In this document: positions 16,255 through 33,302 of the stretch, piece after piece
How the letters are laid out: each line of letters opens with the position of its first letter
Position numbering within the stretch: position 1 is the stretch's first letter
IMG/VR virus record: IMGVR_UViG_3300036770_001578
Span: 1-56,826 of that record
Length of the DNA: 56,826 nucleotides
From: a virus
Lineage: Duplodnaviria > Caudoviricetes
Reading direction: 5' to 3' (one strand)
The notes under the pieces: model-generated
Told to the model about the DNA's origin: nothing
The model's database searches: none
Seen by the model: the letters and a program-made list of their open reading frames with translations, nothing else
Translations under genes and position numbers: made by a program

Positions 16255-16451
16255 AGATTGTCTTTGGAAAACTTCTCTGACCACATGATGATCTTGATCG
16301 AAGCCCGATTGATGTCCATCGACATCTTCTGGACATACTCGGCTTCCTCTTTGGTAAGGGTAGCCTGACCGCAGAGGTGCTGAAGCTTTGCAAGGTTTCC
16401 TTTGATCACCTCGACAGACTCTGCGGGGTCAAACACAATCTCTATGTTCAT
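16251..16451 (-). CDS. hypothetical protein
   Basis: 66 aa, ATGA-coupled on both sides. Confidence 0.6.
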   Translation of the reverse strand: MNIEIVFDPAESVEVIKGNLAKLQHLCGQATLTKEEAEYVQKMSMDINRASIKIIMWSEKFSKDNL

Positions 16452-16792
16452 TGGGATACCTCAATGAGTTTGTCCAGGTAGTGACGGGCCTTCTTCAGAT
16501 CCTCAATCCCGTTCTTGTCTTTCCAGCGGCTGACATACTTGATGACATTGCCTTCCATGTACCCGATCTTATTAGCGATGATGTAGTCCCAGGTCTGGAT
16601 AGGCATCTCTTTGTAATGACGACCACCCTCCTGGATCTCGTTTGCTGGCACAGAATCTTGCTTAGGTGACTTCCGTAGCTTATAGACGGTAGCAATAGAG
16701 ACTTTAGCTTTCTTGGCAATCTCTCTGGCTGACAGTTCCGGGTTGTTCTCAATCAAAGCAATAAGACGGTTACGTTTGGTTGCACGGTTCAT
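16448..16792 (-). CDS. HTH + DUF3310 (SaV / T7 gp1.7-like) protein
   Basis: N-terminal LSAREIAKKAKVSIATVYKL HTH; QEGGRHYK...EGNVIKYVSRWKDKNGIEDLKKARHYLDKLIE. Confidence 0.8.
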   Translation of the reverse strand: MNRATKRNRLIALIENNPELSAREIAKKAKVSIATVYKLRKSPKQDSVPANEIQEGGRHYKEMPIQTWDYIIANKIGYMEGNVIKYVSRWKDKNGIEDLKKARHYLDKLIEVSQ

Positions 16793-17034
16793 TTTAAGTT
16801 CTCCTGAATAGGTTGTTTGTTAGCCCAGATTGTTAAACATGCTTGCTCTAAGTCCCAAGATACTGGGTTTAAACGTAGAGCATCCTTCAGACCTTGGTTG
16901 TAAGCGTCAATGATGTTTTGTGGAATGATGTCTTCTTTAGGGTCTGCTCTCATCTTTGACATGCCAATAGCAATCAAGGATGTAAGGACTACCCCTACAA
17001 GAACACCGCCAAACCATTTAGTGTTGTCTTCCAT
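16789..17034 (-). CDS. membrane-anchored hypothetical protein
   Basis: WFGGVLVGVVLTSLIAIGM transmembrane segment; GGAGG RBS before ATG 17034. Confidence 0.6.
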   Translation of the reverse strand: MEDNTKWFGGVLVGVVLTSLIAIGMSKMRADPKEDIIPQNIIDAYNQGLKDALRLNPVSWDLEQACLTIWANKQPIQENLK

Positions 17035-17248
17035 CTTTTTTAGCCTCCTCAAACTCTCTATCTAAAGTATCAGCAAAATAAGACAAGAAATGTTTCTTAT
17101 CGTGTTCAGAGTCAGCAACCACCTGACATAGCAATCCAGTTAACGCCGGGATCAGGTTGTCATGGTTTTCGTCTTGAATGATTTCAGATATTTTGTCGTA
17201 GAGATACCGATACCTCTCGACACTCGGCCCCTTCTTTTCGTCTGTCAT
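17018..17248 (-). CDS. hypothetical protein
   Basis: 76 aa with AGGAAGAG RBS in co-directional operon. Confidence 0.6.
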   Translation of the reverse strand: MTDEKKGPSVERYRYLYDKISEIIQDENHDNLIPALTGLLCQVVADSEHDKKHFLSYFADTLDREFEEAKKDGRQH

Positions 17249-17453
17249 TTCTCTTCCTTTCTGGTTTTATATCTGTAACTACCTTTAAAAACTGAGCCAT
17301 AGAGCAGCTATAGATCCTGTCACTGCCGTTTGAAAAAAACACCTTACCAAGGAATATCTTTACTATCCTCCTGTGACTGAACCTCGTCTTGCTGGTTAGT
17401 TTCTTCGGGTAGTACGTCTTTCCCTCTACTATCTGTAACGGCTCTCTCTTCAT
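17184..17453 (-). CDS. hypothetical protein
   Basis: GGAG RBS before ATG 17453; overlaps both neighbours, so boundaries are uncertain. Confidence 0.45.
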   Translation of the reverse strand: MKREPLQIVEGKTYYPKKLTSKTRFSHRRIVKIFLGKVFFSNGSDRIYSCSMAQFLKVVTDIKPERKRNDRRKEGAECREVSVSLRQNI

Positions 17454-17763
17454 GACGAATCTCCGCTTGAATGGATTCACAGACAAGCTCCCCGAAAGAT
17501 CTTCCTGATGGGAACATCATTTGGGCACCTGGATTGTTCATAGTGATTTCCATAGCTCTCTTTAGGCCAGCATTGAAACCCTTGTTAAAGGGATCGTTTA
17601 AACCAGCCATCTTTGCCTGCAGTGCTTCTCTTGCTATCTGACTTACTGTGGATCTCCTGGACTTCGCAAAGGTTTTGATCTTTGAGATTTCCTTCGGAGA
17701 GACATAGATCATCAGTGGTGTGACGTTTTTAAAACGGGAGGTCTTTGAATTTCCACTCTTCAT
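17344..17763 (-). CDS. ribbon-helix-helix-like DNA-binding protein
   Basis: LMIYVSPKEISKIKTFAKSRRSTVSQIAREAL fits a beta-alpha-alpha RHH pattern. Confidence 0.55.
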   Translation of the reverse strand: MKSGNSKTSRFKNVTPLMIYVSPKEISKIKTFAKSRRSTVSQIAREALQAKMAGLNDPFNKGFNAGLKRAMEITMNNPGAQMMFPSGRSFGELVCESIQAEIRHEERAVTDSRGKDVLPEETNQQDEVQSQEDSKDIPW

Positions 17764-18151
17764 ATTCTTTCACCATGTTGTCGAAGGTTTCTTGTGCTTC
17801 CTTATTGCCATTGAGTTCTGTCCTGGAGTCGATTCCACAGAGTTCGCATAAGGCATCTGCTGATCTCTTTTCAAGCTCCTTGGCATCGAGAGTGTCAAGA
17901 CCCTCTAGCTGTTGCCATTCCCAGAAGCTTGAGTTCCTGCACAACATCCCAGCTTTCTTGACTCTGTTCTCGTAGACCTGAGCGTTCTCATCATCGTTTA
18001 CACGTGCCATGCCAACCATGTAACGAGCCCCGACAAAGTCCCGAAGAAGCTCTTCGGGAATCTGGTCTGGATGAATCCTCAGGGTCAGAACATATCCGGT
18101 AGCGTCTTGCTTAAGTGCTACCTTCGATGCCTCAAATCCCAGTGCATTCAT
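17729..18151 (-). CDS. conserved phage hypothetical protein
   Basis: 140 aa, CGIDSRTELNGN motif, in operon. Confidence 0.65.
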   Translation of the reverse strand: MNALGFEASKVALKQDATGYVLTLRIHPDQIPEELLRDFVGARYMVGMARVNDDENAQVYENRVKKAGMLCRNSSFWEWQQLEGLDTLDAKELEKRSADALCELCGIDSRTELNGNKEAQETFDNMVKEYEEWKFKDLPF

Positions 18152-18336
18152 GTCATCGAGTCCTTTAGTCCAAGTTGGTTTTCAAGGTAAGAGATCACAG
18201 CCCGGTAACCGATCTCCTTTTTTTTCAAAGATTCAGCTTCTTCAATCCAGGTTTGAATGATTTGGTTCAGATCATCTATCTCTTCTTGTAAATCTTTAAT
18301 GTCTTTGGTTGTTGGTTTCTGTATTTTCTTTTTCAT
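18148..18336 (-). CDS. coiled-coil hypothetical protein
   Basis: 62 aa with GAGG RBS, ATGA-coupled to downstream gene. Confidence 0.6.
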   Translation of the reverse strand: MKKKIQKPTTKDIKDLQEEIDDLNQIIQTWIEEAESLKKKEIGYRAVISYLENQLGLKDSMT

Positions 18337-18344
18337 GGCTCACC

Positions 18345-18605
18345 TCAAAAAGGGATGTCAGCGTCAGGATCGGAATGTCTCTCTTGCCTCTCTTCTTTCT
18401 TGTAGTTATCAACCGCGAGAGCCAGAAAGGTCTTGCCATTCTTGGAGGTCTTCTTCCAACCGCCGATCTTGAACTCCACATGACCATCAACGATCTGCAC
18501 TGTAGATAGGTCTAGGTAAAAACTCCCCACATAATCCGGAGCCTTGGAGCTCTTCTTTGCAAGGGCAGCAAACAAAACACCTGAGTTTGGATATTTCTTG
18601 TCCAT
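18345..18605 (-). CDS. putative ssDNA-binding protein (DUF736-like)
   Basis: NSGVLF...KAPDYVG...GWKKTSKNGKTFL plus acidic DADIPF C-terminus typical of SSBs. Confidence 0.6.
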   Translation of the reverse strand: MDKKYPNSGVLFAALAKKSSKAPDYVGSFYLDLSTVQIVDGHVEFKIGGWKKTSKNGKTFLALAVDNYKKEERQERHSDPDADIPF

Positions 18606-18635
18606 GATTTTTCCTTTGTTGGTAATTAAAGATGT

Positions 18636-19421
18636 CTAGCTAATAACTTGGTAGTCGTGATGAATGAAACCCTCCTCTTTGATTTTGTGTTTGTTGATGG
18701 TGCATGAACGAACATAAACAACCTTGCCACTCCTGAGTCTTCTTTGGTGTCCTCTACGGTCATGAGGCTTCGGGCTGGCGTGAGTGCCGCCTTGAGGCGC
18801 TACCTCCTTTCGTCTTGGTTCAAGATCAATCTCAACCGTTGTCCACTCAAAAAACTGCCGCTTACCTTTCGCTCTGCGCTTGGCGTTGTGATGATGGTCT
18901 CTTAGCTTTGCACCAATGATCTTGCAACCTTGCGCCGGGATGCCATAACACAGCAAAAAGATTCTGGTCATAACGAGTTCAGCGGTATTGGCATATTCTT
19001 CGTCAAGCTTTGATACATCCTTTGGGTCTACATTTATCGCTTTCAAATATTTCGGGTGAAAACGCACCGTAAAGGAATCTTCATAGTTGAAATTCTCTTT
19101 GAAGATTATCGTGAACGCTGGCTCTGCAAGGCGTATCATGAAACCTTTGATAGTAAGTTCTGGACCGTTGCGATCAACTAATACCGGGTATGGAATCGAA
19201 TGTGAATTATTTTCTGGTGACTTTATCGTGATAATCAGACCTATACGATCAAAGGGCATAGGCAAGTCTGAAATATTTTTGTTCAGGCTTTCCAGTGGAT
19301 TTTTACTCGTCCACTCAGAAAAAATAAACCTGAACCCAGACTGCTCTGTCACATCAAACCAGACATGAGAGACCGGGCTGACTGGCAAAAGAGACACATA
19401 CTCCGCGACGATGGGGCTCAT
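18636..19421 (-). CDS. hypothetical protein with C-terminal HASP..H.RRGH.R motif
   Basis: GGTHASPKPHDRRGHQRRLRSGKVVYVR; slightly AT-richer than flanks. Confidence 0.7.
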   Translation of the reverse strand: MSPIVAEYVSLLPVSPVSHVWFDVTEQSGFRFIFSEWTSKNPLESLNKNISDLPMPFDRIGLIITIKSPENNSHSIPYPVLVDRNGPELTIKGFMIRLAEPAFTIIFKENFNYEDSFTVRFHPKYLKAINVDPKDVSKLDEEYANTAELVMTRIFLLCYGIPAQGCKIIGAKLRDHHHNAKRRAKGKRQFFEWTTVEIDLEPRRKEVAPQGGTHASPKPHDRRGHQRRLRSGKVVYVRSCTINKHKIKEEGFIHHDYQVIS

Positions 19422-19432
19422 GCTGGTCCCCT

Positions 19433-20191
19433 CTAACCTCCCTTCAATCCGGTCTTGCAGTACTTAAACACGTCCAGAATTTCCTGGTAGGTCTTTGCGT
19501 CTTTCTTCTTCAAGACATTCAGGACAGACTGGTTTGCAGACCAAAGTTCGGTCAGTTCCGCAACACTGGTGCAGGAACGGGCACACTCGATGAAGCTGAA
19601 AGCTTCCCAACCCTCTGGGATAGTGTCTTCAGATTTCTTCTGGGTGTCAGGGTGAGGAGCGCGGGGTTCCTCTTTAACCTTCGCCTTGGGTTCTACCTCG
19701 GGCTTAGGTCTCTCCTCCACATCATGCTCAGAGGCAATCTCAGGATCGTCTCCAGTCTCCAGCATGAAGGTCTTCAGTAAGGCGTATTTGCTAGCCCCAG
19801 TCAAAGCCTTGTAGATCCCTTTATCACCGACCCCTCTGCTGTTCTTATCGTTACCAGAACCTGCAGCGCGGAAGGTGATGAAGTTTCCTTCCTCATCAAA
19901 GAGTCGATAGATCACCAGGACATTGGTGTTCCCATGAGGGTCTTGAGAGACAGACTCAACGCTAGGAATCATGAAGAGACCAGCCTCGATCAAAGCAGGC
20001 CTGATGGCTGCGATAGCGTTAGCCTCAGAGGCGTACTTGTACCCCTGGAACTCATTCTTCCCGTCCTTCTGGACGTACCCCACCCTTTTCATCACCTGCA
20101 TCACCTTCGCTGCGATACTGGCTGCACCACTGTGAGACGCCACAGAAATTTCCTGTACATCTAACTGGCTCACCCCTTCTAAATTCGACAT
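19433..20191 (-). CDS. erf: ERF-family ssDNA annealing protein
   Basis: KDGKNEFQGYKYAS...GSGND...DKGIYKALTGASKYALLKTFML..GDDPE; AAGGAG RBS 7 nt before ATG 20191. Confidence 0.85.
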   Translation of the reverse strand: MSNLEGVSQLDVQEISVASHSGAASIAAKVMQVMKRVGYVQKDGKNEFQGYKYASEANAIAAIRPALIEAGLFMIPSVESVSQDPHGNTNVLVIYRLFDEEGNFITFRAAGSGNDKNSRGVGDKGIYKALTGASKYALLKTFMLETGDDPEIASEHDVEERPKPEVEPKAKVKEEPRAPHPDTQKKSEDTIPEGWEAFSFIECARSCTSVAELTELWSANQSVLNVLKKKDAKTYQEILDVFKYCKTGLKGG

Positions 20192-20960
20192 AACCATTCT
20201 CCTTTTTTGCTAGCTCTTCAGCTTCTTCCTTGGTTTCAAAAACACGGATGGCAGTCTTTCTGCCTTCCCTCTTTACGGCGTAAGTCGATGTTCTGACCCA
20301 ACGCTCTTCTTCTGTGCAGAACGGAAGCTCTTCGTCCATGTCTGCAAGAAACTTGGATTCCTTGTGGAGAGCGATCCTCTCCTCCACGTACCTCTGAGTC
20401 TTTTCGTGATCCCATAGCGGTAGGTCTATGACCTGGATGGGAGCAGGTGGGTAGTCAGACTTCAAAGCTGCGTCCCTTCGTGACCAGTCCCGGATCAGGG
20501 CACAGATCTGTACCCCCAGGACTTCCACCCCCTTCTTCTCCCGCACCATCCAGGCGTAGATGTTCTGCTGGGCCTCCCAGTCGAACTTGTCAGCCCTGAC
20601 AGCCCAGGCGGAGGTGAACTTGTAGTCGGTGATCAAGATCCCTTCAGGGGTGACCTTCTGCAGGTCTATGGCCCCAGAGAGGACGACATTGCTAACCTCA
20701 ACATGGAGCCTTTCCTCGACTATGTGGTTATCAGTCTGGCCCTTCTCGGCTACCACATGCAGGGCCCTTCCCAGCATCGACCACAGCATGTCGGAGACAT
20801 CCTGCTCCATGTCCTGCCAGTGCTTGCGCCTGAGTCTTTGAATCCTGGGGGGAGAGATGATCTCGGTGACTGAGAAGTCAGCCAAGCCTTTGGTGTAGTC
20901 ATCGTTAGCAGCTAACGAGACCAATGTTTCTGGTACATTAAACTTGTTCGTTATCCTCAA
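20052..20960 (-). CDS. PD-(D/E)XK Cas4-like exonuclease
   Basis: VEERL...GAIDL...ITDYKFT...QQNIYAW and C-terminal Cys cluster C...RC...FC....C..Y; TTG start with AGGAGG RBS. Confidence 0.85.
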   Translation of the reverse strand: MRITNKFNVPETLVSLAANDDYTKGLADFSVTEIISPPRIQRLRRKHWQDMEQDVSDMLWSMLGRALHVVAEKGQTDNHIVEERLHVEVSNVVLSGAIDLQKVTPEGILITDYKFTSAWAVRADKFDWEAQQNIYAWMVREKKGVEVLGVQICALIRDWSRRDAALKSDYPPAPIQVIDLPLWDHEKTQRYVEERIALHKESKFLADMDEELPFCTEEERWVRTSTYAVKREGRKTAIRVFETKEEAEELAKKENGYVEFRRGEPVRCTGNFCGVSQWCSQYRSEGDAGDEKGGVRPEGREE

Positions 20961-20974
20961 AGGAGCCTCCTGTA

Positions 20975-21376
20975 ATGAAAGAGAACGATAACACTAACAC
21001 GAGCGAAGTGCAAACATTTGTAGTTTACGGTGAGCCAGCATCAAAAGCAAATAGCCGGAAGATGGTCACCATCGGAGGGGTGCCGAGACTGATCAAGTCC
21101 AGGAAGGCTTTGTCCTACTCAGAGGCGTTTAAACTGCAATGCAAGGGCTCCCCGGTGGAGGGTGATGTCAAGGTATCTATGACCATCTACTACGCCTCCA
21201 GAAGGCCGGATTTGGACGAATCGCTGATATTGGATCTGCTGCAGGGAGTGGCTTACCTCAACGACCGTCAGGTCAAGGAGAAGCACATCATCTGGGGGTT
21301 GGATAAGGAAAACCCTAGGGCAGAGATCAGAGTCGAAAAAAAACCCCCGGACGTGCCGGGGGAAGGGGGGAGGTGA
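20975..21376 (+). CDS. rusA: RusA-like Holliday junction resolvase
   Basis: GEPASKANSR...RRPDLDE..ILDLLQG...NDRQV...NPRAEIRV; true start could be GTG 21008. Confidence 0.85.
   Translation: MKENDNTNTSEVQTFVVYGEPASKANSRKMVTIGGVPRLIKSRKALSYSEAFKLQCKGSPVEGDVKVSMTIYYASRRPDLDESLILDLLQGVAYLNDRQVKEKHIIWGLDKENPRAEIRVEKKPPDVPGEGGR
20985..21013 (-). promoter_or_regulatory. sigma70-like promoter for nuclease/erf operon
   Basis: Minus strand TTGCAC-N17-TATCGT just upstream of the 20960 start. Confidence 0.55.
21336..21362 (-). terminator. intrinsic terminator of leftward sRNA
   Basis: Minus strand CCCCCGG-cacgt-CCGGGGG followed by T8. Confidence 0.8.
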
Positions 21377-21420
21377 GTCAATCACCTTCGGAGAGTCTTG
21401 GAGGCTCAATTCCTAGACTG
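21336..21420 (-). ncRNA. putative ~85-nt antisense sRNA
   Basis: Bounded by near-consensus promoter and terminator; hairpins AGUCUAGGA-AUUGAGCC-UCCAAGACU and GGUGA-UUGAC-UCACC; complementary to 22536-22554. Confidence 0.65.
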
Positions 21421-21426
21421 GATGAG

Positions 21427-21471
21427 ACTATATGAGATGAGTTGACACCTGTCAAACCTGGGGATTAATAT
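21427..21471. promoter_or_regulatory. overlapping divergent sigma70 promoters
   Basis: TTGACA-cc-TGTCAA inverted repeat at 21442-21455; minus TTGACA-N17-TATAGT, plus TTGACA-N18-TAATAT. Confidence 0.75.
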
Positions 21472-21476
21472 TCGGC

Positions 21477-21613
21477 TGTCGGAAGTGACGCTCCGGCATC
21501 ATGGGAAAGGATAGAACCTCTTAGAGAGGGCTTGTTGCCATCGTTTCTTTCCCCGATGCTGGCCTGTCAAGCCCAAGTCCTCTCTAAGGGGTTTTTCTTT
21601 TGGGCCTTCCGAC
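21477..21613 (+). ncRNA. structured leader / C4-like regulatory RNA
   Basis: 22-bp stem 21513-21534/21574-21595 followed by U-rich tract; its loop is complementary to 21493-21511; GTCGGAAG (21478) pairs with CTTCCGAC (21606). Confidence 0.55.
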
Positions 21614-22302
21614 CGTACTCCAGACGGACTAAGGGCTTACCCCGGCTGCGTGGAAGAAAAGGGTACAGGTAGGACTAAATGAAAAAAAAGTCCACGGTGC
21701 AATTCCAAGAATCCTGCGACTGGCAGAACTCCCAAGTCGAGGGCGTAGCGTAACCAACCGCTAGCATGGGAGTCCGGTATATCCGGGGGTGGAGCCACCC
21801 TGTTCCGTACCCTTCGCGGGGTAGGGGGCAGTCTGGGTGGAAAATATAAAAAAGGGTGTTAATAGCTAACAGCAGACCCTGATAGTTAACACTACAGCCT
21901 GATTGCTAGCGATAGGAAAGGCAGTTAAGATGAGTAACAGTTCAGGAGTCTATGCACATGAAGCTCGGGCAGTGCTGCATCACTGTTTCCGTGCAGGGAG
22001 TCGGGGAGGTTTCCATACCTATGATCCGAATCGGGCTTCAGTTGCATGGGCTTCCCTGTCTCCGTAAGTGAATGGATGTGAGAGTCGGTTTACTTATGGG
22101 AAGCCCATGACCTTCTGCACTGCAATGTTCCTCATCAAAACCGGCGAGAGATACGGTATACGACTGTATAAAGTATCAGGCCCTAGAAGGGCAAGAAATC
22201 TCTTCCAGGGCCGGTATCCCGAGAGTAAAATCATCAAACTGGATATCTTTTACGGTAGCAATCCAGTTCAACACAGTGAACTCCCACAGTTAGGAAAAGA
22301 AG

Positions 22303-22530
22303 ATGCGGGACTGGAAGAAGGAATACCAGCTTCAGAAGAAGCGTGGCGACACGAAGGGTCAGATCGAGCGGCAGAGAGCCCGAAGGATGTACGACCAAAA
22401 TGGAGTGGATCGCAATGGAAAAGACATCGAGCACAAAAAGCCAATCAGCAAGGGGGGAAAGTCAACAGCAAAAAATCTAACACTACGGGATCGCTCTTCT
22501 AACCGAAGAGACAACAAGAAATCCTCTTAA
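22303..22530 (+). CDS. small HNH-like protein (T7 gp7.7-like)
   Basis: MRDWKKEY...GKDIEHKKPISKGG...NLTLRDRSSNR. Confidence 0.7.
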   Translation: MRDWKKEYQLQKKRGDTKGQIERQRARRMYDQNGVDRNGKDIEHKKPISKGGKSTAKNLTLRDRSSNRRDNKKSS

Positions 22531-22552
22531 CTAGTGTCAATCTGGAGGCTCA

Positions 22553-24226
22553 ATGAATCTGGCACATGTTTACGTATCACCAGGGCAAACCGTTCGGGTT
22601 GCCTGTCCTGAATGCAGTCCTCAACGCCGTAAGTTCAACAGCAAAGACCTGTCGGTCACGTCCAAGGACGATGGCCTTTTCTACTATTGTCATCACTGCG
22701 GGGCCTCTGGCGTCTTCTCGTCCCGCCCAAGGGAGAGAAAATTGTCAGCCGTTCCATCAGCCAAAACAATCCAAGCACCGCTAACAGCAGACCATCTTGC
22801 TTACCTCAGCACCAGAGGTATCAGTCAAGAGACAGCAGAGAGAATGAAGGTGTTCTCTGCCAGGAAATGGTTCAACCGTCTCGGGAAGGAAACCCAGGCG
22901 ATAGGTTTTCCCTACTATCGTGACGGCGTATTAGTTTCTGCCAAATACCGCAGCATCGAGGAGAAGGACTTCACCCAGGACGCTGGTGGCGCTCACGACT
23001 TCTTCGGGATTGATAACCTTGTACCAGACCACCCGATCGTTATCGTTGAGGGAGAGATAGACGCCCTTACCCTAATCGAATGTGGTATCCAAAACGCTCT
23101 ATCCGTCCCTGGAGGGGCTCCGCTGAAGGTGGCTGATGGTAAGGTACATGCCTCTGAAGACAAGCGCTTCTCGTTCGTCTGGAACGCCCATGAGGCCCTT
23201 GAGAGATCCCAGTGGGTCATCATTGCTACCGACAATGACGGGCCGGGGCAGGCTCTAGCCGAAGAGCTAGCCAGAAGGATAGGCAAAGACAAGTGCAAAC
23301 TAGCCAAACTTATCCACAAGGATTTAAACGAGACATTACTGAAGGATGGCAAGGAAGAGGTTTTAAGGATCGTTAACAGTGCAGAGCCTTACCCAGTAGA
23401 AGGATTGTCTTCAGCACAGGATTACAAGGATCGTTTAAACGACCTATGGGTAAAGGGGGTAGGGAAGGGTTGCTCTACCGGGTACGACACAGTAGACAGG
23501 ATTTACACGGTAGTACCAGGACAGCTAACAGTTGTGACGGGTTACCCCTCTTCGGGTAAATCGAACTTTGTAGACCAGATGATGGTCAACCTGGGAAGGA
23601 GAGAGGACTGGAAGTTTGCAGTCTGCTCTTTCGAAAACGCTCCAGAGATCCACATCTCCCGCCTGATGGAGATCTATATCGGCAAGAGGTTCTTTGAGGG
23701 AACCAAGAGGATGGAGCAGGAGGATCATGACAAGTCTTTCGAATGGGTCAATGACCACTTTATGTTTATGAACTCCGAGTCAGCAGAGCCAGCGACACTG
23801 GAATCAATCCTCGCAAGGGCCAAGGTAGCGGTTGCCCGGTACGGGATCAGAGGAATGGTGATCGATCCCTACAATTACATCGAGATGGGGCGAAGAGATG
23901 GAGCAGAAACAGAATCTATCAGCAACATGCTTTCTCGGGTTCAAGCGTTTGCAAAGGCCTATGGAGTCCATGTCTGGTTCGTTGCCCACCCCTCCAAGAT
24001 GCAGCGATCCGGAAACGAACTCCCAAGACCAGACGGGATGTCCATCTCCGGATCAATGGCATGGTGGGCAAAAGCAGACTGCGGGATCACAGTCCACCGG
24101 GTAGAGAAACAAACACAGATAGCGGTATGGAAATGCAGGTACCGCTGGGTTGGCAGTCAGGGAGAAACAAACCTGGACTTCGACCCCGTTACAGGAACCT
24201 ATAAGGAAGTCGAAGACGCCTTCTAG
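22553..24226 (+). CDS. primase-helicase (T7 gp4 / Twinkle-like)
   Basis: Zn finger CPEC...CHHC, TOPRIM VEGEIDAL/ATDND, Walker A GYPSSGKS, VIDPYN, FVAHP. Confidence 0.93.
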   Translation: MNLAHVYVSPGQTVRVACPECSPQRRKFNSKDLSVTSKDDGLFYYCHHCGASGVFSSRPRERKLSAVPSAKTIQAPLTADHLAYLSTRGISQETAERMKVFSARKWFNRLGKETQAIGFPYYRDGVLVSAKYRSIEEKDFTQDAGGAHDFFGIDNLVPDHPIVIVEGEIDALTLIECGIQNALSVPGGAPLKVADGKVHASEDKRFSFVWNAHEALERSQWVIIATDNDGPGQALAEELARRIGKDKCKLAKLIHKDLNETLLKDGKEEVLRIVNSAEPYPVEGLSSAQDYKDRLNDLWVKGVGKGCSTGYDTVDRIYTVVPGQLTVVTGYPSSGKSNFVDQMMVNLGRREDWKFAVCSFENAPEIHISRLMEIYIGKRFFEGTKRMEQEDHDKSFEWVNDHFMFMNSESAEPATLESILARAKVAVARYGIRGMVIDPYNYIEMGRRDGAETESISNMLSRVQAFAKAYGVHVWFVAHPSKMQRSGNELPRPDGMSISGSMAWWAKADCGITVHRVEKQTQIAVWKCRYRWVGSQGETNLDFDPVTGTYKEVEDAF

Positions 24227-24435
24227 TGCATACTGGGATCGTCTGGGTTCATAGACAAACGAAAGGCCAAGGCTTCTAGGATCTTATCCTTGTCTATCTT
24301 TTGGACAGTGCAGACCAGGGCAATGACCTCCATCAAGGAAGTCATGCCCAAAGCAAACGATGCATCTTTCTCTCCCAGAAGATTAAGAATGCTTTCCGCT
24401 AATTCTCTCACCTCATCTTTAGTGCTCATTTCCAA
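24223..24435 (-). CDS. hypothetical protein
   Basis: 70 aa, last gene of leftward operon. Confidence 0.55.
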   Translation of the reverse strand: MEMSTKDEVRELAESILNLLGEKDASFALGMTSLMEVIALVCTVQKIDKDKILEALAFRLSMNPDDPSMH

Positions 24436-24770
24436 GAGTCTCCCTTTAGTTTTAGCAATCGGTTACCGAGACCATCCTTCTTCTTAACCTCCCCAAGCAT
24501 TAACCGACTAGACGAAAGACACCTCTTGGTTTTTATGTCGTAGAGAGATCCGGTGACGGCGTCCATGAGGAAGACCTTCTTCTTCGGGTCAGTGCCGATA
24601 TAAACCGGGGTCATAACCCTCTCTCCCATGTTTGTCATCCCGGCGAAAAGCTCGTGATTCTTTATCCATTCCTTCCTTCTGGCAACAGTCCCTTGAGGGA
24701 TGTAGTAGTCCAGACTGTAAAGATTCTTTGAGTCAGCGACCTTGATAGCGACATCAGTAGTGATTTCCAT
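24426..24770 (-). CDS. hypothetical protein
   Basis: 114 aa, AGGAG RBS, FLMDAVTGSLY motif. Confidence 0.65.
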   Translation of the reverse strand: MEITTDVAIKVADSKNLYSLDYYIPQGTVARRKEWIKNHELFAGMTNMGERVMTPVYIGTDPKKKVFLMDAVTGSLYDIKTKRCLSSSRLMLGEVKKKDGLGNRLLKLKGDSWK

Positions 24771-24772
24771 GG

Positions 24773-25120
24773 TTAGCTCCTGGCCCAGATGTATTCAAAG
24801 GTAGAGACAGCACCAGCGCGAAGTAGCTCCTCCCTGGTGTACTCATGTGAGTTGTACTCAAAGGAAGGTTTCTCGTAAATTACACCAGCCCTCTCCAGGG
24901 GTCTCCAGTACCCAGGCCCAACGTACTTCTTTACGCCAAGGTCTGTGTCTTCTTTGCTCTGTTTAAACAGGGGTACATAAAGAACGCTGACCTTGCTACC
25001 GTTCCAGTCAACCGTCTTCCGAAAGCATTCGGTAGCGTGTTTAGGTGCCTCGATGTTTGGTGCTGCCTTGTTGCCAGTCTTGCTAACAGTTTCGGATTTA
25101 CTAAAGCTAGGGATATTCAT
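24773..25120 (-). CDS. hypothetical protein
   Basis: 115 aa with GGAAGGAAG RBS. Confidence 0.6.
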   Translation of the reverse strand: MNIPSFSKSETVSKTGNKAAPNIEAPKHATECFRKTVDWNGSKVSVLYVPLFKQSKEDTDLGVKKYVGPGYWRPLERAGVIYEKPSFEYNSHEYTREELLRAGAVSTFEYIWARS

Positions 25121-25182
25121 TTGACTTCCTTCCGGTTTTTAATTGATTGCAGATATCTTGAGCATAAAAGATTGCTGTGGGC

Positions 25183-25413
25183 TCATCTCTTCACAAATCT
25201 TTCTGCCCTACGTTGCACCTTAACCTCTACGCACCAGCTATCTGCGTAGGCGCCCCTCTTTGGTATAGCCTTGTAGAGGTTGTCTTGGGTGAATTCCTGA
25301 CATGCCTTCTGTGTCATAAAGTACCCCTTATGCTGCATTAGCTGGCACTCAGTGACGTTCGGTGTTTCACAGAGCAACACCACAGGCACAAACAGTGTTA
25401 TCAGTTCTGTCAT
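25183..25413 (-). CDS. Cys-containing secreted/membrane hypothetical protein
   Basis: Hydrophobic N-terminus, 4 Cys. Confidence 0.55.
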   Translation of the reverse strand: MTELITLFVPVVLLCETPNVTECQLMQHKGYFMTQKACQEFTQDNLYKAIPKRGAYADSWCVEVKVQRRAERFVKR

Positions 25414-25613
25414 AGCTCTTTCCTTTCAGTTTTTTTATTAAGCCATTCTTGTAGCTCTAGCTTTGTACGAACATAGTTTTCTTTTGAGATACCAAGACGA
25501 TGAGCTAATGCAGCCTCTGCAAGAGTAACTCCTACAAGGGGTGTGCCGTCTCTCCAACCTAAATCCCATGGGTCAGGTTCTGTTTTAAACCTTGCTTTTT
25601 TTCTTACTCTCAT
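25410..25613 (-). CDS. hypothetical protein
   Basis: 67 aa, ATGA-coupled; AT-rich block. Confidence 0.55.
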   Translation of the reverse strand: MRVRKKARFKTEPDPWDLGWRDGTPLVGVTLAEAALAHRLGISKENYVRTKLELQEWLNKKTERKEL

Positions 25614-25876
25614 TTGTTCTTCTCCTTGTAATAAATGTGACCGTATTTATAAAAATCTTCGTAAGTAATTATTGAGTGGTACTCATCATCAAGAGAAGAT
25701 CTTAGGGTATCTAAAACTCTTAACACACGCACCGCATCTTTATGTGTTTTATGGCTCCATCCAAATTTACTGCCGCATGTGGATGAAAGTTCTAAAAGAT
25801 TACTTCTAATCTCCGTAACAACCTTTGCATGTTGCAAATGCTCATCTAATGTCATTCTTGGAAGTTTTTTACCCAT
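25610..25876 (-). CDS. hypothetical protein
   Basis: 88 aa with AGGAG RBS; AT-rich block. Confidence 0.6.
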   Translation of the reverse strand: MGKKLPRMTLDEHLQHAKVVTEIRSNLLELSSTCGSKFGWSHKTHKDAVRVLRVLDTLRSSLDDEYHSIITYEDFYKYGHIYYKEKNK

Positions 25877-26249
25877 TGTTCTTCTCCTTTAGTTTGGCTT
25901 CTGCCCATTTTGACCCGGCAATAAAACATCTTGTGCTAATTTTTTCTTTGGAGTAATCCTCATCCGTCAGCCCAACCCACTTGCTTTCGATCTTCTTTAT
26001 GTCTTCTGGTGTGTGGGTTCGCACTTGCTTTTCTTCCGGTGTTGTGTAATTAGGCTTGCCTCCCGCATAGGTCTTGACCCAGGGCTTCTCTGCCTCTGCG
26101 ATGGCTTGGCGTAGTGCGGTAATGGCTTGTCGTGCTGGTTCGCCACCGTCCACGACTCCACCAAAATCTTTAGGGTCGTTTGAAGACGTAACCACATGCA
26201 CATAATTTTTCAAAACCTCCAGTGCTTGCTTCATTGCCTCGATGCTCAT
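25869..26249 (-). CDS. mosaic hypothetical protein typical of betaproteobacterial phages
   Basis: MSIEAMKQALE...AITALRQAIAEAEK...WVGLTDE...AEAKLKEKN blocks. Confidence 0.7.
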   Translation of the reverse strand: MSIEAMKQALEVLKNYVHVVTSSNDPKDFGGVVDGGEPARQAITALRQAIAEAEKPWVKTYAGGKPNYTTPEEKQVRTHTPEDIKKIESKWVGLTDEDYSKEKISTRCFIAGSKWAEAKLKEKNNG

Positions 26250-26440
26250 TTCTCACCTCTTTGTCTTATCTCTTCAGCACAAGTAATCCCATCGTTTTGG
26301 GCACACTCGGTTTCGCAAAGAACAGCACACGCCTCACGCTCCCGATCTACCGCCCAGTTAACTAGACGATGGATAAATTCATCAGCATCGAGACCTTCCG
26401 GTAATGCCGCTATCAATTCTCCTATCTCTTCTTTGGTCAT
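26246..26440 (-). CDS. mosaic hypothetical protein
   Basis: EREACAVLCE...CAEEIRQRGEK block. Confidence 0.7.
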   Translation of the reverse strand: MTKEEIGELIAALPEGLDADEFIHRLVNWAVDREREACAVLCETECAQNDGITCAEEIRQRGEK

Positions 26441-26634
26441 ACACCCTCCAGGAATGTGGTTAATTCATTGAGCGCATCCTTCTCTAGCGTCACCTGGAAC
26501 TTCTTCTGTAGACCATCAGGATCTTTGGCCCCTGTCCACTGAGAATCAATCTTCAGGGTCTTGTGTTCTCCCCAATCGGTAACAGTGAAGTGCATCAGGT
26601 ATGTATCTGTTAATTGGATTACCAGCTTTTTCAT
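26437..26634 (-). CDS. hypothetical protein
   Basis: 65 aa with AAGGG RBS. Confidence 0.6.
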   Translation of the reverse strand: MKKLVIQLTDTYLMHFTVTDWGEHKTLKIDSQWTGAKDPDGLQKKFQVTLEKDALNELTTFLEGV

Positions 26635-26648
26635 TTATTCCCTTTCGT

Positions 26649-26966
26649 TTAAACGCCCCTACCGCTTTGGCAGGGCCACATGGCTGTTAGCTTGTTTGCG
26701 ATGATGCTGTCAGCGCTGTAATGCCGACTGCCTGGATTGTCTTCCAGGTGCTTTCTGATGATGTCTGTTAACTGACCTGCCGTGATGTTCGTGGGGGGAC
26801 ATACGACAATGCTGTACAGTGCATCGGTAACACCAAGCACGTACCCAAGGGCTAAACCTCTGTTAACACTACCTCCATTCATGTCTCTTAAAAGATCGTT
26901 GCCAGACATGAAGTGGGCACATGCAATTGATGGCGCTATCAAAAAACAGGCGATGATTTTTTTCAT
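26649..26966 (-). CDS. Rap1a-like immunity protein with signal peptide
   Basis: MKKIIACFLIAPSIACA signal; SGNDLL...GYVLGVTD...CPP...GQL..I..KHL..NP..RH..A...WPC. Confidence 0.75.
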   Translation of the reverse strand: MKKIIACFLIAPSIACAHFMSGNDLLRDMNGGSVNRGLALGYVLGVTDALYSIVVCPPTNITAGQLTDIIRKHLEDNPGSRHYSADSIIANKLTAMWPCQSGRGV

Positions 26967-27151
26967 TTCAGTTCCCTCTCTTTCAGTTCTTTAATTACCT
27001 CTTCGTTTCCTTCCGCTATCACTATCGCTTGCCTGATAGCGGCATTCCAGCCCTCAAGAAACCCTCTCCCAAAGGGAGAGGACTTCATTTGGATTCCGGT
27101 GATACCTGTCTCTGCAAAGCAGTACTTGTTCCATGCCTCTTCTACATTCAT
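26963..27151 (-). CDS. hypothetical protein
   Basis: 62 aa, ATGA-coupled. Confidence 0.55.
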   Translation of the reverse strand: MNVEEAWNKYCFAETGITGIQMKSSPFGRGFLEGWNAAIRQAIVIAEGNEEVIKELKERELK

Positions 27152-27909
27152 TTGGTAAGTGTCCTTATGAGTTTTTGGAACATCGCATTCTTGAGTTCAG
27201 ATGCTGTTCTGATGTTCACGCTGTTGGTGAATACTTTGTTAACACTGTGGGAGCAGACACCGATGACAACCAGCGTCACCCCAAGCTTCTCTGCCATAAC
27301 CTCCAGGTGCTTGACATGTTCCTGTATATAACCCGTTGCATCGGTGAGGAAGAACAAGACACGTCTTTGTTCTGGCCTGCGTGAGATCTCATCAATCGCC
27401 CAGTACAGGGATGCGTAGTCAGGCGTCCCGCCAGCAGCGATCTTGTGCATGTACCCAAGCTTGCCTTGAGCGTTGCCAAGTCTCTCCCCCCAGGTCTTGA
27501 ACCTAATGAAGGTAGGCCTCTCGATGTACTCACCGTTGACAGTCTCGTAGGAAAGCTCATGGTTACCAAAACCGTAGACCGCAAACGGTACCTTGGTTTT
27601 GTTCAGGATCTCTCCCAAATGGATCGATACTTTCTGAGCCTCTCCGATCCTGCTGCTCATTGAACCGGAGCAATCCACCATGATCATCACCGAAGACTTC
27701 TCGGCCTCTTTGTACTCACGCCGGGAGAAGATCGAAGACTCACCACAAGCAAACCGGGTAAGGGCTCTCTTGTCTAGCCTCCCGGCTTCCTCTCTCTTTG
27801 ACCATCCGACAGAGTCAATACTGCGAAGAAGCCTGCTGATCTGATTGCGGATAGCGCCTGCCCCGATATCTTCCTGGGCTATCTGTTGGTACTTGTTAAC
27901 GTAGGTCAT
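27148..27909 (-). CDS. vWA domain protein (CobT C-terminal-like)
   Basis: GRLDKRAL, MIDAS DCSGSM, GGTPD, FFLTD; GGGAG RBS and ATGA overlap at 27906-27909. Confidence 0.85.
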   Translation of the reverse strand: MTYVNKYQQIAQEDIGAGAIRNQISRLLRSIDSVGWSKREEAGRLDKRALTRFACGESSIFSRREYKEAEKSSVMIMVDCSGSMSSRIGEAQKVSIHLGEILNKTKVPFAVYGFGNHELSYETVNGEYIERPTFIRFKTWGERLGNAQGKLGYMHKIAAGGTPDYASLYWAIDEISRRPEQRRVLFFLTDATGYIQEHVKHLEVMAEKLGVTLVVIGVCSHSVNKVFTNSVNIRTASELKNAMFQKLIRTLTK

Positions 27910-28802
27910 GCTTTCTCCCATGGGAACTTGTAATCAATTGGTTTGCCAATCGCTGGCCTTGGGTAAACCTTGTCTGCCTTGCAGGGTTTGGTCTCCATGT
28001 GTAGCGAGATCTCTACCGGGATGGCCTTCTCTCTTCCCTTTCCTGAAGAGGCGCCCTTCTGCTTGTCTCCTTCCTCCCCCTCACCTTCACCCTCACCTTC
28101 GCCCTCACCTTCGCCTTCACCTTCGCCCTCACCTTCCTTCTCTTCCTCCAGGGCCTCTTGGGTCTGCTCGTTCAGATCCCTTTGGTTCCGGGGTTTGATC
28201 TCTTTGAGTAGATCGATGGCAATCTTCACAATCTCGTCAGTACTCTCGGCCTTATGTGCAGCGTTAACAGCCCGGAGCAGGGGTTCAGCATGGACAGACC
28301 TTTCAAGGATTGGAGCCACGTTGATGGGATACCCGTTTAAACGTCTGCCATCAACAGCCAGGAAGAACGGGTAGTTAACGACATCGTTCGGATCGTAGTT
28401 GCCATTGGCTACCTCATTGATCAGGTGTTCAAACAGGTTGCGGGAGTTAGGCACCCTTCCGGACTCGTAGACCTTCCGCTCGATGCGGGGATCTTCCAGA
28501 CCGTTAATCAGGTGCCCAAGGTATGCCCCATGCTTGTCGATCGCGTCATCCCAGGGGGCCCTGTCGGTAAACCACAGGTGCCCGAGTTCATGGGCTGCAT
28601 ACCCGACAAGCTTCTGAAGCATTGCCCTGGGGAATATTGCGGTATCGTCCAGGTCTGGGAACATTAGGACAATCCCTTCCTTCTCCCGGATCACCCCGGC
28701 GGTTTTGCCCTGCCACAGAACCCGAATGATGTTCAGATCCTGCTGGGCATTGATCCGCTCAAAGGTAGCGACAGTCGATCGCTTGACTTCCACCCCTAAC
28801 AT
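27906..28802 (-). CDS. CobT N-terminal-like HExxH protein with acidic (GE)n tail
   Basis: GYAAHELGHLWFTD...NGLEDPRIE; EGEGEG repeat near C-terminus. Confidence 0.75.
   Translation of the reverse strand: MLGVEVKRSTVATFERINAQQDLNIIRVLWQGKTAGVIREKEGIVLMFPDLDDTAIFPRAMLQKLVGYAAHELGHLWFTDRAPWDDAIDKHGAYLGHLINGLEDPRIERKVYESGRVPNSRNLFEHLINEVANGNYDPNDVVNYPFFLAVDGRRLNGYPINVAPILERSVHAEPLLRAVNAAHKAESTDEIVKIAIDLLKEIKPRNQRDLNEQTQEALEEEKEGEGEGEGEGEGEGEGEGEGEEGDKQKGASSGKGREKAIPVEISLHMETKPCKADKVYPRPAIGKPIDYKFPWEKA
28076..28138. repeat. 6-bp coding tandem repeat encoding (GE)n
   Basis: tcaccc/tcacct/tcgccc units on the + strand. Confidence 0.85.
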
Positions 28803-30256
28803 AAAGCCTCCTTCATCTTTTTGATGTTGATCATTGCTGAGAACACCCCATCAAGTTCGCCATGGACTTCCTGGGGAAACTTGTTGAGGATCGTTGCTTC
28901 GAAAGACTTGATGACCGGAACCCCGGCCTTCAGTGCCCTGGCCCACGCAAAGAGTTGCCGAAGGCTGGGCGGTTGGGTTAACAACCCAGACCTAGCCTTC
29001 TCCCTAGCAGCGTTAGCAAACTGCACAATCTGGCTAGCAGCATCCAGAGAGATCCCAGTCCTGCGATGGATCAGTTCACCTTCCTGCTTGCTGCCCAGGT
29101 ACTCAAACCTCAGGGTGTAGCTGAACCGATCCAGGAAAGCGGAGTTCTGCTCCCTGACCCCTGCAAAGTTCCCAGACGCATCGCCATGGCCTGTACTGTT
29201 ATCAGCAGCAAAGAAGGCCACATGGGAGGCAACAGGGAACCTCTCCCCGGTCTCAGGAACCGAGAGAGATCGATGAACAGACCTCTCGCAAAGGGAGTGC
29301 AAGACCGCGAGGTTCTGTGCCCTTGCGAACCCAACCTCATCGAGCAGCACCAGGGCACCGGGGTAGCTGATGGCCTGGGTGATGATCCCCGGCTTCCAGA
29401 CCACGTTGCCTTCCTGGATGGTGTTAGCACCGATGTAGTCGGATCTCTCCAAGGCCTCATCGAAGTTCACCCGGAACAGGCGCCTCTTCAGACGAGCGGC
29501 AAGCTGGGTGACGAACTCGGTCTTTCCGGTGCCTCTCTCCCCTGCCAGCCAGCAGTTATCAGGCAACCCGTCAGAAAGGGCTACAAGGGCCTGATGCAGG
29601 TGTTCTGGGGGGAAGACATAGTCTTCGACTACGGGAGGCGCTAGCGGGTCATCCCAGACCTGTACGGGCATCCCACCGAAGTCGATCGACTCCTCGGTTG
29701 TCCAGTACCGGGTAGCGCTCTCAGGAAAGAGGTCTCTGGCCTTCACTGTCTGGAATTTAGGCAGTGCTTTTGCAACCTCTTCCAAGACCTCCACGGGCTC
29801 GGTCTTGCGGAACTGATCAAACAGGCGAGAGACTTCCTCGGTGATCCTGCTGTTATCCACAGGGGAGACCTTGCTCTCCAGGGTTAGGATCTTCCGGTCT
29901 GTCCACTCCCGGAGGTCTTTTTCGATCGTTGACAGTTGCTCCCCGATCGCTAGCCGTTCAGCGTCCAGGGTCTCTTCAACCTGCTTGATCTTCTCCTGAA
30001 GCTTGGCAACAGACCGGGAGGCCATAACGTCCTGGGCAACCTGGGTTACCGGATCAGATGCTATCGGCCTCTCTGCCCTCTGCATCAGTTGGATATCAGA
30101 GACTGTGGTCAGACCGCTCTCCACGGCTTTGGCAAGGTTATGGACAACCTTGGCCTTGACGGTCTCGTAATTCCCAAGACCCAGGGACACCTGGGCATTA
30201 TTCAGTTGCTCAAGGGGCAGCAGGGCTAGCTGCCGTGCGATTTGTTGTGAGTTCAT
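28796..30256 (-). CDS. CobS/MoxR-like AAA+ ATPase
   Basis: Walker A GERGTGKT, Walker B LLDEV, NSAFLDRF, SLRQL; N-terminal coiled coil. Confidence 0.9.
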   Translation of the reverse strand: MNSQQIARQLALLPLEQLNNAQVSLGLGNYETVKAKVVHNLAKAVESGLTTVSDIQLMQRAERPIASDPVTQVAQDVMASRSVAKLQEKIKQVEETLDAERLAIGEQLSTIEKDLREWTDRKILTLESKVSPVDNSRITEEVSRLFDQFRKTEPVEVLEEVAKALPKFQTVKARDLFPESATRYWTTEESIDFGGMPVQVWDDPLAPPVVEDYVFPPEHLHQALVALSDGLPDNCWLAGERGTGKTEFVTQLAARLKRRLFRVNFDEALERSDYIGANTIQEGNVVWKPGIITQAISYPGALVLLDEVGFARAQNLAVLHSLCERSVHRSLSVPETGERFPVASHVAFFAADNSTGHGDASGNFAGVREQNSAFLDRFSYTLRFEYLGSKQEGELIHRRTGISLDAASQIVQFANAAREKARSGLLTQPPSLRQLFAWARALKAGVPVIKSFEATILNKFPQEVHGELDGVFSAMINIKKMKEALC

Positions 30257-30819: not shown

Positions 30820-30850
30820 GGTTTGAGCCTCCATATTGTTAGCGATAGTA

Positions 30851-31039: not shown

Positions 31040-31419
31040 GCGTTTTCCTCCACGTTCTCAATGATTGACTCAGCGATCTCTTTAGTTTTCTTGCGATCGA
31101 TCTCTTCCCCTCTACGTTTAAACAGACGATCGACAATCTTCCAGTCGTCATCAATCACGTAGACCCCGTTGTCCCAGTTGTCGGTATCAGCGTTGCCGTA
31201 CTCTTCCCGGTAGACATTCATGCCCACCGGGTTTTTAAAGAAGGCACGGGCTAGAACCTCCGCTAGGGCGTCCATGCGCTCCCGGTGATCTCCTTCTATC
31301 CCCAGGGCCTTAGCAGCCCGTAGGAAGCCCTCTACCGAGGCCCTACCGCCATTCCAGTGGAGATAGATGCAGGGTGCTGTGGGGTGAGTCTTGAATGTAA
31401 TGACTGCGCGGTTTCCCAT
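31036..31419 (-). CDS. conserved early phage hypothetical protein
   Basis: MGNRAVI...IYLHWNGGRASVEGFL...DNWDNGVYVI. Confidence 0.75.
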   Translation of the reverse strand: MGNRAVITFKTHPTAPCIYLHWNGGRASVEGFLRAAKALGIEGDHRERMDALAEVLARAFFKNPVGMNVYREEYGNADTDNWDNGVYVIDDDWKIVDRLFKRRGEEIDRKKTKEIAESIIENVEENA

Positions 31420-31575: not shown

Positions 31576-31577
31576 GA

Positions 31578-31853: not shown

Positions 31854-31855
31854 CT

Positions 31856-32926: not shown

Positions 32927-32945
32927 GGTAGAGCCTCCTGTGGTT

Positions 32946-33300: not shown

Positions 33301-33302
33301 GG

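Follow-up and report, generated by a model that had tools for sequence, protein, structure and literature searches.

We describe here a small-RNA gene in an uncultured phage whose DNA, the 56,826 nucleotides (nt) of IMG/VR virus record IMGVR_UViG_3300036770_001578, was analysed whole and is called the window below (estimated completeness 92%). The gene lies between those for RusA and a primase-helicase, and is predicted to encode an RNA of ~85 nt that probably acts in trans as an anti-Shine–Dalgarno (anti-SD) RNA, repressing the translation of replication and recombination genes. The loop of its first hairpin is complementary to the start region of the primase-helicase gene, and in related phages it varies together with that region. 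The parts of the gene, its main predicted target and the two flanking genes are as follows.

21427..21455 (−): sigma-70-type promoter of the small RNA; −35 box TTGACA at 21455..21450, 17-nt spacer, −10 box TATAGT at 21433..21428
21336..21421 (−): predicted small RNA transcript, ~85 nt; 5′ end set from the −10 box, 3′ end at the U-run
21394..21419 (−): hairpin 1; stem AGUCU/AGACU, inner GGA/UCC helix, seed AUUGAGCCUCCA (21410..21399)
21371..21387 (−): hairpin 2; AGGUGA-UUGAC-UCACCU, carrying GAUUGAC (21383..21377)
21336..21362 (−): intrinsic terminator; 7 G-C pairs (21362..21344), 5-nt loop, then U8
22536..22554 (+): main predicted target, the primase-helicase start region; GTCAATC faces hairpin 2 and TGGAGGCTCAAT faces the hairpin-1 loop
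20975..21376 (+): RusA gene, convergent with the small RNA gene
22553..24226 (+): primase-helicase gene, Toprim and DnaB_C domains, 557 amino acids (aa)

The original prediction, made from the letters of the window, held that a minus-strand promoter and a strong terminator bound an RNA of ~85 nt, and both are present as described. TTGACA-N17-TATAGT matches the consensus at 11 of 12 positions and is the best sigma-70-like site within the 20-kb early region (15400-35390), in which the others score 9-10 of 12; promoter-like sites as a whole show no excess there (9 found versus 14.4 in shuffles). The terminator, which overlaps the last RusA codons on the opposite strand, is the strongest terminator-like site of the same region. 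Folding of the 87-nt RNA gave hairpin 1, hairpin 2 and the terminator at −29.7 kcal/mol (shuffle mean −23.4, z = −2.14; 7/200 shuffles fold equally well), with AUUGAGCC in the loop of hairpin 1 and UUGAC in that of hairpin 2, which confirmed the claim of two hairpins with complementary segments at their loops. In the relatives, no conserved open reading frame (ORF) follows the RNA motif; the ORFs there range from 8 to 108 aa and have mixed start codons. A contig from metagenome DNA run X8 spans 21269-21496 without a difference from the window, and run X15 leaves 21388-21448 without cover. A scan of the window with Rfam 15 returned no family at gathering score, and C4 was not among the 9 Rfam matches with E ≤ 10 in 21250-22350.

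TGGAGGCTCAAT occurs in the window exactly twice, at 21399-21410 and 22543-22554, both on the plus strand, and copies of GTCAATC lie at 21377-21383 in the RNA gene and at 22536-22542 in the primase leader. Because both motifs are repeated on the plus strand, the minus-strand RNA is complementary to 19 contiguous nt, 22536-22554, which span the SD sequence plus the A and U of the ATG at 22553; this 12 + 7-nt complement had been read correctly at the outset. No other site in the whole window offers the RNA body so long an exact complement as the primase site. Neither motif alone is enriched: GGAGGCTC occurs 6 times versus 2.93 expected (7/100 shuffles reach 6), and GTCAATC 10 times versus 8.27. 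Against the 81 start regions of the window, for which gene starts were called by a simple rule, a run of at least 12 nt arose in 3/400 dinucleotide shuffles of the 58-nt RNA body, and a colinear two-block sum of at least 19 in 0/400, the largest being 17. A ranking against all phage start regions, proposed as a check on the target, gave a divided answer: by hybridization energy, itself a crude measure, the primase stands first of 81 (−33.7 kcal/mol), but it falls to third after a crude accessibility correction. The top-ranked sites after that correction all belong to early genes. In four metagenome DNA runs, target variants (22541 T>A and 22543 T>A) lie near contig ends, with no linked RNA sequence.

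The gene belongs to a conserved family. For comparison we used the best 80 of 153 IMG/VR relatives (62-74% amino-acid identity); the 80 sources counted below are the window plus 79 related loci. A blastn search with 21300-22560 against 80 related loci detected no RNA homologues, which were found by target-derived k-mers and then by pattern search. In ~40 loci an exact 9-14-nt copy of the primase start region lies 629-1756 nt upstream on the plus strand, always framed by an A-run with a hairpin, a second hairpin, GGAGGCTNAAT, a reversed −10 box and tgtcaa. The pattern search placed the element in 60 of the 80 sources, always between RusA and the primase operon (8 of the 20 sources lacking it have less than 1 kb of upstream sequence), and also in a betaproteobacterial contig from a metagenome-assembled genome (MAG), L082. 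The shared architecture is a promoter, hairpin 1 with a AUUNAGCC[U/C]CC loop, hairpin 2 and a terminator, and the order PDDEXK(−)/RusA(+)/small RNA(−)/leader/orf75(+)/primase(+) is kept in 46 of 48 representatives, the other two being without upstream sequence. Of 51 distinct upstream regions, 33 have an exact TTGACA and 43 agree with the promoter consensus at 9 or more of 12 positions; the promoter keeps a constant distance from the core, the −10 box ending ~20 nt before it.

The structure is conserved along with the position. When 51 distinct sequences were folded one at a time, the core lay within hairpin 1 in 42, and 5 or more of its 7 bases stayed unpaired in 34. Hairpin-1 flanks pair better with their own partners (−4.71 kcal/mol) than with swapped ones (−2.75 kcal/mol; 41 distinct flank pairs, 0/10,000 permutations); as the relatives share phylogeny, permutation counts here and below overstate independence and are not true probabilities. 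The structure of hairpin 2 is kept in 22 distinct stem/loop versions, and its loop sequence is not conserved. An alignment of 42 sequences (A5) had 93.7% of cells paired versus 74.0% in shuffles, double changes in 17 of 18 pairs and a co-variation score of 0.516 versus 0.165 (0/500 shuffles), figures that come from related sequences in an alignment fitted to the model and so lean towards it, which makes the individual folds the safer evidence. All 5 modelled pairs of hairpin 1 are changed on both sides in this alignment, as are 8 of the 9 terminator pairs, and the hairpin-2 cells are all paired; with the partners slid, 30-52% of cells paired. A MAFFT alignment (A1) analysed with RNAalifold recovered the terminator and nothing more. 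Covariance model R2 matches the window copy at 21336-21419(−) over positions 1-74 of 74, its sole match in the window; run over 151 genomes of the order of the L082 MAG, it returned that MAG and one false positive. Locus L089 lacks both the AGCCUCC core and a primase. The anatomy of the gene, its conservation and the compensatory changes in its stems support the window element as a real small-RNA gene. The family is new in that it matches no Rfam model and that none of the papers listed by literature searches, supplementary tables apart, describes it.

What ties the RNA to its target is the hairpin-1 loop (AUUNAGCCUCC), which varies together with the primase start region of each phage; co-variation of this kind had been named as a check, and it is present for hairpin 1, changes of the core included. 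Over 49 distinct pairs the longest exact complement of the loop averages 10.27 nt in the phage's own primase start versus 7.41 nt in those of other phages (0/10,000 permutations). Variants that match the phage's own RNA include CUCAAU, CUAAUC, CUUAAU and CUCAUUU, with matching 5′ flank variants UGGAGG, UCGGAGG, CACGGAGG, AACCGGAGG and CAGGAGG. The core, elsewhere without variation, is altered in two cases: in L018 the RNA core is GGCCUCC and GGAGGCC stands in both the primase and the nuclease start regions, and in the L024 clade a GCCCCC core goes with GGGGC in the start regions; a mismatch in L079 could, by eye, still pair as G-U. A complement of at least 9 nt is found for the primase in 45 of 49 pairs and for the nuclease in 12 of 49. 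In 28 of the 49 no other site of the locus gives as long a complement as the primase start, which shares first place in a further 8. The nuclease start region co-varies more weakly (7.87 versus 6.91 nt, 0/10,000 permutations).

Presence and absence follow the same line. Of the 62 loci that extend 1.8 kb or more upstream, the RNA accompanies a GGAGGC-type primase start in 50, both are missing from 8, and the RNA stands alone in 4 (3 of these being start-codon miscalls); in no locus does the motif stand alone. In the clade without the RNA the primase start overlaps an upstream ORF, as in translational coupling, and has no SD; this clade probably stands for one or few evolutionary events. The co-variation of loop and start regions supports the view that the loop is under selection to stay complementary to the primase start and to those of other early genes.

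The window holds further complements at start regions, all of them upstream of minus-strand genes of the early region.

20963..20970 (−): SD GGAGGCUC of the PD-(D/E)XK nuclease gene (20052-20960, TTG start), 8-nt match, the second recurrent target
30822..30833 (−): start region of a 188-aa HExxH protein (ATG at 30819), 11-nt complement at 30823-30833, UGGAGGCUCAA
33380..33389 (−): start region of a 24-aa hydrophobic peptide (ATG at 33377), 10-nt complement
32931..32938 (−): start region of a 94-aa ORF (ATG at 32926), 8-nt complement
31047..31072 (−): second colinear bipartite site; UGAGUCAAUCA (11 nt, hairpin 2), 9-nt spacer, UGGAGG

The matches of 11, 10, 8 and 8 nt had all been reported correctly, on the minus strand and just upstream of start codons; the names given to some of the genes fared less well. 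The match at 20963-20970 is real, but the nuclease, labelled Cas4-like, belongs to Pfam family PDDEXK_1. The gene labelled SprT-like carries its 11-nt match and a visible HExxH in translation, and matched 0 Pfam families, which leaves that label unconfirmed. As for a "hammerhead 1" near 32950, no Rfam family reached gathering score in the window, a permissive threshold not having been applied there. The bipartite site 31047..31072 sits upstream of the ATG at 31039 of a 62-aa membrane protein, the gene that ranks first of the 81 start regions after accessibility correction. Two of the best window targets encode small hydrophobic proteins (33303-33377 (−), 24 aa, MMDILLIAVAFYIAVICIVLLMEV; 30851-31039 (−), 62 aa), reminiscent of RNA-repressed membrane toxins or holin-like peptides. 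The ribosome-binding sites (RBSs) of RusA (+) and the nuclease (−) overlap back to back at 20955-20977 in the stretch AAGGAGCCTCCTGTAATG: AAGGAG is the RusA RBS and its complement CAGGAGGCTCC the nuclease RBS, with start codons 14 nt apart, so that the promoter of each gene must lie inside the other gene or beyond it.

GGAGG is present in 14 of the 81 window start regions, all 14 within the early region from 17034 to 33377, and is followed by CU in 8 and CA in 3; the late genes use SD sequences of AAGGAG/GGAG type. The canonical tail of 16S ribosomal RNA (rRNA) is CACCUCC. Set against that canonical tail, CU after GGAGG is complementary to the small RNA (AGCCUCC) and not to the rRNA. In four complete or near-complete relatives with a GCCUCC core, GGAGGCT occurs 19, 17, 26 and 10 times versus 1, 2, 11 and 4 for the reversed control, and in a relative whose RNA has a GCCCCC core 3 times versus 4. 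In that last genome 10 of 11 copies of GGGGCTT lie between 21.4 and 36.6 kb.

We propose that host RNA polymerase would transcribe the ~85-nt RNA from the near-consensus sigma-70 promoter and stop at the intrinsic terminator. The seed in the hairpin-1 loop, made up of CCUCC (as at the 3′ end of 16S rRNA), AG and a variable AUUN, would then pair with the SD, the spacer and the first start-codon bases of the phage's own primase-helicase messenger RNA (mRNA), and more weakly with the mRNAs of the PD-(D/E)XK nuclease and of several early genes with the extended SD GGAGGCU. Such pairing would block 30S binding, and translation of the replication and recombination genes would be repressed. The expression of the RNA, its repressor activity, its timing and its part in the life cycle are inferred. 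Since the phage has an integrase, the likeliest role would be to silence or restrain replication in a lysogen or upon superinfection, as in immunity or copy control; RNA-based immunity is thus possible, and the alternative is a delayed shut-off of early genes in lytic growth. An immunity-like or copy-control role is also made plausible by the integrase together with a back-to-back arrangement of promoters:

21442..21471 (+): divergent promoter TTGACA-N18-TAATAT; the −35 boxes of both promoters form the palindrome TTGACAccTGTCAA

In many relatives (L014, L016, L021, L037 and L050 among them) a palindrome or half-site, GAGAACGTTCTC / AGAACGTT, was seen by eye just upstream of the −35 box of the RNA promoter and could be an operator; in the window, the palindrome GAACGTTC is not enriched (28 sites with at most 2 mismatches versus 25.1 expected).

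Several points weigh against this proposal, besides the shared phylogeny and the fitted alignment noted above. The small RNA is known here as a predicted transcript, from the DNA sequence alone, and none of the 24 public runs listed for 19400-24300 is an RNA run. The primase drops to third of 81 once accessibility is considered, and in 13 of 49 pairs it is not the best complement in its own locus; in L081 it shares only GGAGG with the RNA, and the nuclease start region is the target instead. The R2 match to the window copy is weak (16.4 bits, E = 0.21), and model R1, built from one clade, missed that copy at E ≤ 1. GGGGCTT is not specifically commoner in the GCCCCC-core genome (11 versus 7-12 elsewhere). 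Finally, if a repressor is made constitutively and acts on a gene that the phage cannot do without, there must be a mechanism of relief, for which the candidate that we can offer is itself conjectural. RusA and the small RNA are convergent with no plus-strand terminator in between, so read-through from RusA would yield a perfect antisense to the small RNA. With this added, a bolder version of the proposal can be drawn, to which we give a rather low probability as a whole: GGAGGCU would be a private extension of the SD code, its last two bases read by the 16S-mimicking AGCCUCC, so that one RNA would silence the whole early class; the variable flanks and cores (CUCAAU, CUAAUC, CUUAAU, GGCC and GCCCCC cores) would act as specificities of an RNA-based immunity among related temperate phages; and the RusA read-through might serve as a sponge giving relief in lytic growth.

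Other explanations were weighed against the same data. The original prediction had both loops pairing with the target, as in the C4 RNA of P1 and the CI RNA of P4, and a bipartite mechanism of this kind, which would make the RNA either kin to P1 c4 and P4 CI or an analogue of them, is possible but not the likelier course. Within the window, complements to two segments of the RNA do occur (12 + 7 nt): on the target they form an unbroken run of 19 nt, a sum as large was absent from the 400 shuffles, and a second colinear site precedes the ATG at 31039, the first-ranked start after accessibility correction, although chance alone should give the RNA body ~1.4 exact 11-mer matches in the window, as estimated from sequence lengths. 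As a family feature it fails. A hairpin-2 segment matches the primase leader of its own phage about as well as it does the leaders of others (4.10 versus 3.97 nt; 1365/10,000 permutations), and the 7-nt complement between hairpin 2 and leader (GUCAAUC) occurs in the window alone, while 1.1% of cross-phage pairs reach 7 nt. The leader sequence GTCAAT is conserved in L002, L003, L004, L014, L016 and L017, yet in the four of these in which the RNA was found (L002, L014, L016 and L017) the hairpin-2 loops are unrelated and C/U-rich. The C4 model of Rfam (RF01695) was not matched in the scans. Bipartite pairing might at most be a lineage-specific addition, with the odds rather against it, and not the mechanism of the family; the C/U-rich hairpin-2 loops of many relatives could instead be a second, generic anti-SD element.

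It is more doubtful that the RNA is mainly a terminated 5′ leader, an attenuator product of the leftward operon that runs from PDDEXK and ERF to the integrase, with any action in trans secondary; the promoter at 21455 would then be the early promoter of this operon, which would be controlled by read-through of the terminator. Upstream of the nuclease gene no other minus-strand sigma-70-like site scores more than 9 of 12, and the overlap of the RusA and nuclease RBSs, 14 nt apart, puts the nuclease promoter at or beyond RusA; the order of promoter, terminator, recombination genes and integrase is also reminiscent of the lambda pL arm. Non-canonical promoters escape consensus scans, however, read-through would have to cross 400 nt antisense to RusA, and a leader acting in cis leaves unexplained why the seed co-varies most strongly with the primase on the other strand (45/49, versus 12/49 for the nuclease). 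A leader of this sort is compatible with action in trans and does not exclude it. That an anti-SD RNA is aimed at GGAGG-type RBSs of the host for translation shut-off, with the phage matches incidental, is very unlikely: any strong SD would be a partner for the CCUCC core and, in many relatives, for C/U-rich hairpin-2 loops (for example CUCCUCCUCCUC), as in multi-target bacterial anti-SD RNAs, but an RNA directed at the host alone does not predict flanks and a core that co-vary with phage start regions. We consider it extremely improbable that there is no functional RNA and that the plus-strand copy is either the remnant of a duplicated primase leader or a repeat of a protein-binding DNA operator. 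The motif is indeed a direct plus-strand repeat ~1.1 kb from the primase start; yet promoter, terminator, stems and loop persist in 60 of 80 sources in intergenic DNA otherwise too diverged for blastn, and the motif stands at translation starts and not at promoters, on the DNA strand that follows the orientation of the gene. A relic of a duplicated untranslated region, which had been kept open as the fallback, is likewise disfavoured by the loop-target co-variation and the compensatory stem changes. The trans-acting anti-SD RNA thus stays our preferred reading.

Compared with known systems, the anti-SD RNA shares features with several. The c4 RNA of P1 and P7 is a small structured phage RNA whose loop sequences pair around an RBS and block translation of a regulatory gene of the phage, its sequence variants defining specificity between related phages (PMC12197685). 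Like c4, the RNA of the window family is small and structured, a loop of it would pair around the RBS of a phage gene, and its variants are lineage-matched. Unlike c4, it matches no C4 model, and its conserved seed includes the anti-SD core while its second segment is not conserved. The c4 RNA is processed from the leader of the operon that it controls and has an antirepressor gene as target; the window RNA, by contrast, has its own promoter and terminator, so that it would not be cut from such a leader, and its predicted target is a primase-helicase encoded on the other strand. In P4, CI is processed from the same transcript as its target and acts mainly through premature transcription termination. 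The likeness to it is RNA-based control that keeps the operon of a primase-helicase (alpha in P4) silent in a temperate element; the complement centred on the SD and start codon, unlike that of P4 CI, points to translation occlusion.

Among bacterial RNAs, alpha-r14/'cuckoo'/NfeR1 (with CCUCCUCCC loops) and RF02278 resemble it in C/U-rich anti-SD loops, a Rho-independent terminator and many SD targets, and several relatives have hairpin-2 loops of CUCCUCC type. The RF02278 model (Betaproteobacteria toxic sRNA) reached 15 bits versus a gathering score of 50, at 21337-21380 over the terminator only, and gave no match at E ≤ 1 in six relatives. The window RNA differs from these in being phage-encoded, in its AG extension and gene-matched flanks, and in its fixed place by the primase operon. 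CopA of R1, RNAI of IncB and RNAII of pMV158 are constitutive, loop-presenting antisense RNAs that repress translation of replication initiators, which is the action predicted here; but such cis RNAs overlap their targets and are fully complementary, whereas the RNA gene of the family lies 0.6-1.8 kb off on the other strand, always upstream (its distance from the target is 1.1 kb in the window and 629-1756 nt in relatives), and has a 9-14-nt seed. T4 RegA and RegB are proteins that regulate early start regions, RegB cutting within GGAG; the class-wide early shut-off through an SD or start-region feature is a functional analogy only, with an RNA here in place of a protein. As found for trans-acting small RNAs in general, the gene is an independent transcription unit (promoter, terminator and no conserved ORF) with a conserved, accessible, co-varying seed. 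Falling outside C4, RF02278 and the CopA type, it is best filed as a new family in the established class of base-pairing translational repressors.

The same intergenic region holds other noncoding elements. A second candidate small RNA (21478-21612 (+), core 21513-21608) is divergent from the first and lies downstream of the plus-strand promoter 21442-21471; it forms a long hairpin with a T-run at its end (−57.5 kcal/mol, z = −3.76) and matches no Rfam family. Three viral contigs that are otherwise unrelated (L084, L085 and L087) share its ~95-nt core at 86-89% identity, each with a TTGACA of its own in front. In four metagenomes the summed contig depth over 21510-21631 is 135-1212 versus ~5-30 beside it, so many other genomes carry this second candidate. 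The Betaproteobacteria-1 RNA (RF02932, 65-83 bits) was found in 14 of the 24 relatives that were scanned for it (L025:192-308, L081:3443-3565, L014:3423-3542, L021:3467-3586 and 10 more loci). It lies there on the plus strand, after the anti-SD RNA gene and before orf75/primase, a location that puts it in the leader of the primase operon; it has no match in the window, and none of the papers listed for it deals with this motif as judged by title and abstract. A noncoding block at 21605-21671, 78-91% identical in distant relatives including the RNA-less clade (L033, L041, L044, L045 and L061), may take the place of the Betaproteobacteria-1 motif in them. Some metagenome contigs join ~21309-21328 directly to ~21638, which suggests that 21330-21637 is an exchangeable module.

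The phage itself is temperate by gene content, as it has an integrase. We identified these genes in the window:

15451-16182 (−): tyrosine integrase
early region: ERF, PD-(D/E)XK nuclease, RusA and the Toprim/DnaB primase-helicase
elsewhere: terminase small and large subunits and portal protein
35359-35628 (+): ORF of 89 aa with a LexA DNA-binding domain alone (PF01726, E = 3e-13), just upstream of the large terminase gene

The LexA-domain ORF may encode a repressor or regulator, and weak helix-turn-helix matches were found for ORF 16448-16792, so the statement that the phage has no visible CI was too strong. An ORF of 3,433 aa (4882-15183 (+)) matches solely PHROG families without known function, and no tRNA genes were found in the window. 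The region 20900-24300 had no blastn match to cultured phages, and no cultured phage has a primase more than 35% identical to the one encoded here. The primase is also found on two MAG contigs, labelled beta proteobacterium and Burkholderiaceae, a weak hint at Betaproteobacteria as hosts; neither MAG contains a 16S gene from which the host anti-SD could be read.

Few phage small RNAs have known targets, and nearly all of these come from cultured enterobacterial, Vibrio and Staphylococcus phages, according to PMC12197685. The anti-SD RNA family is widespread in uncultured temperate phages of varied aquatic, subsurface and landfill metagenomes, and covariance model R2 can be used for annotating it. 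Its target, the phage's own primase-helicase, can be read straight from co-variation. The early genes would form an RBS class marked by two bases that the ribosome does not read, and the family makes a case, drawn from its sequences, that phage replication may be controlled at the RNA level and possibly for a part of this control in heteroimmunity.

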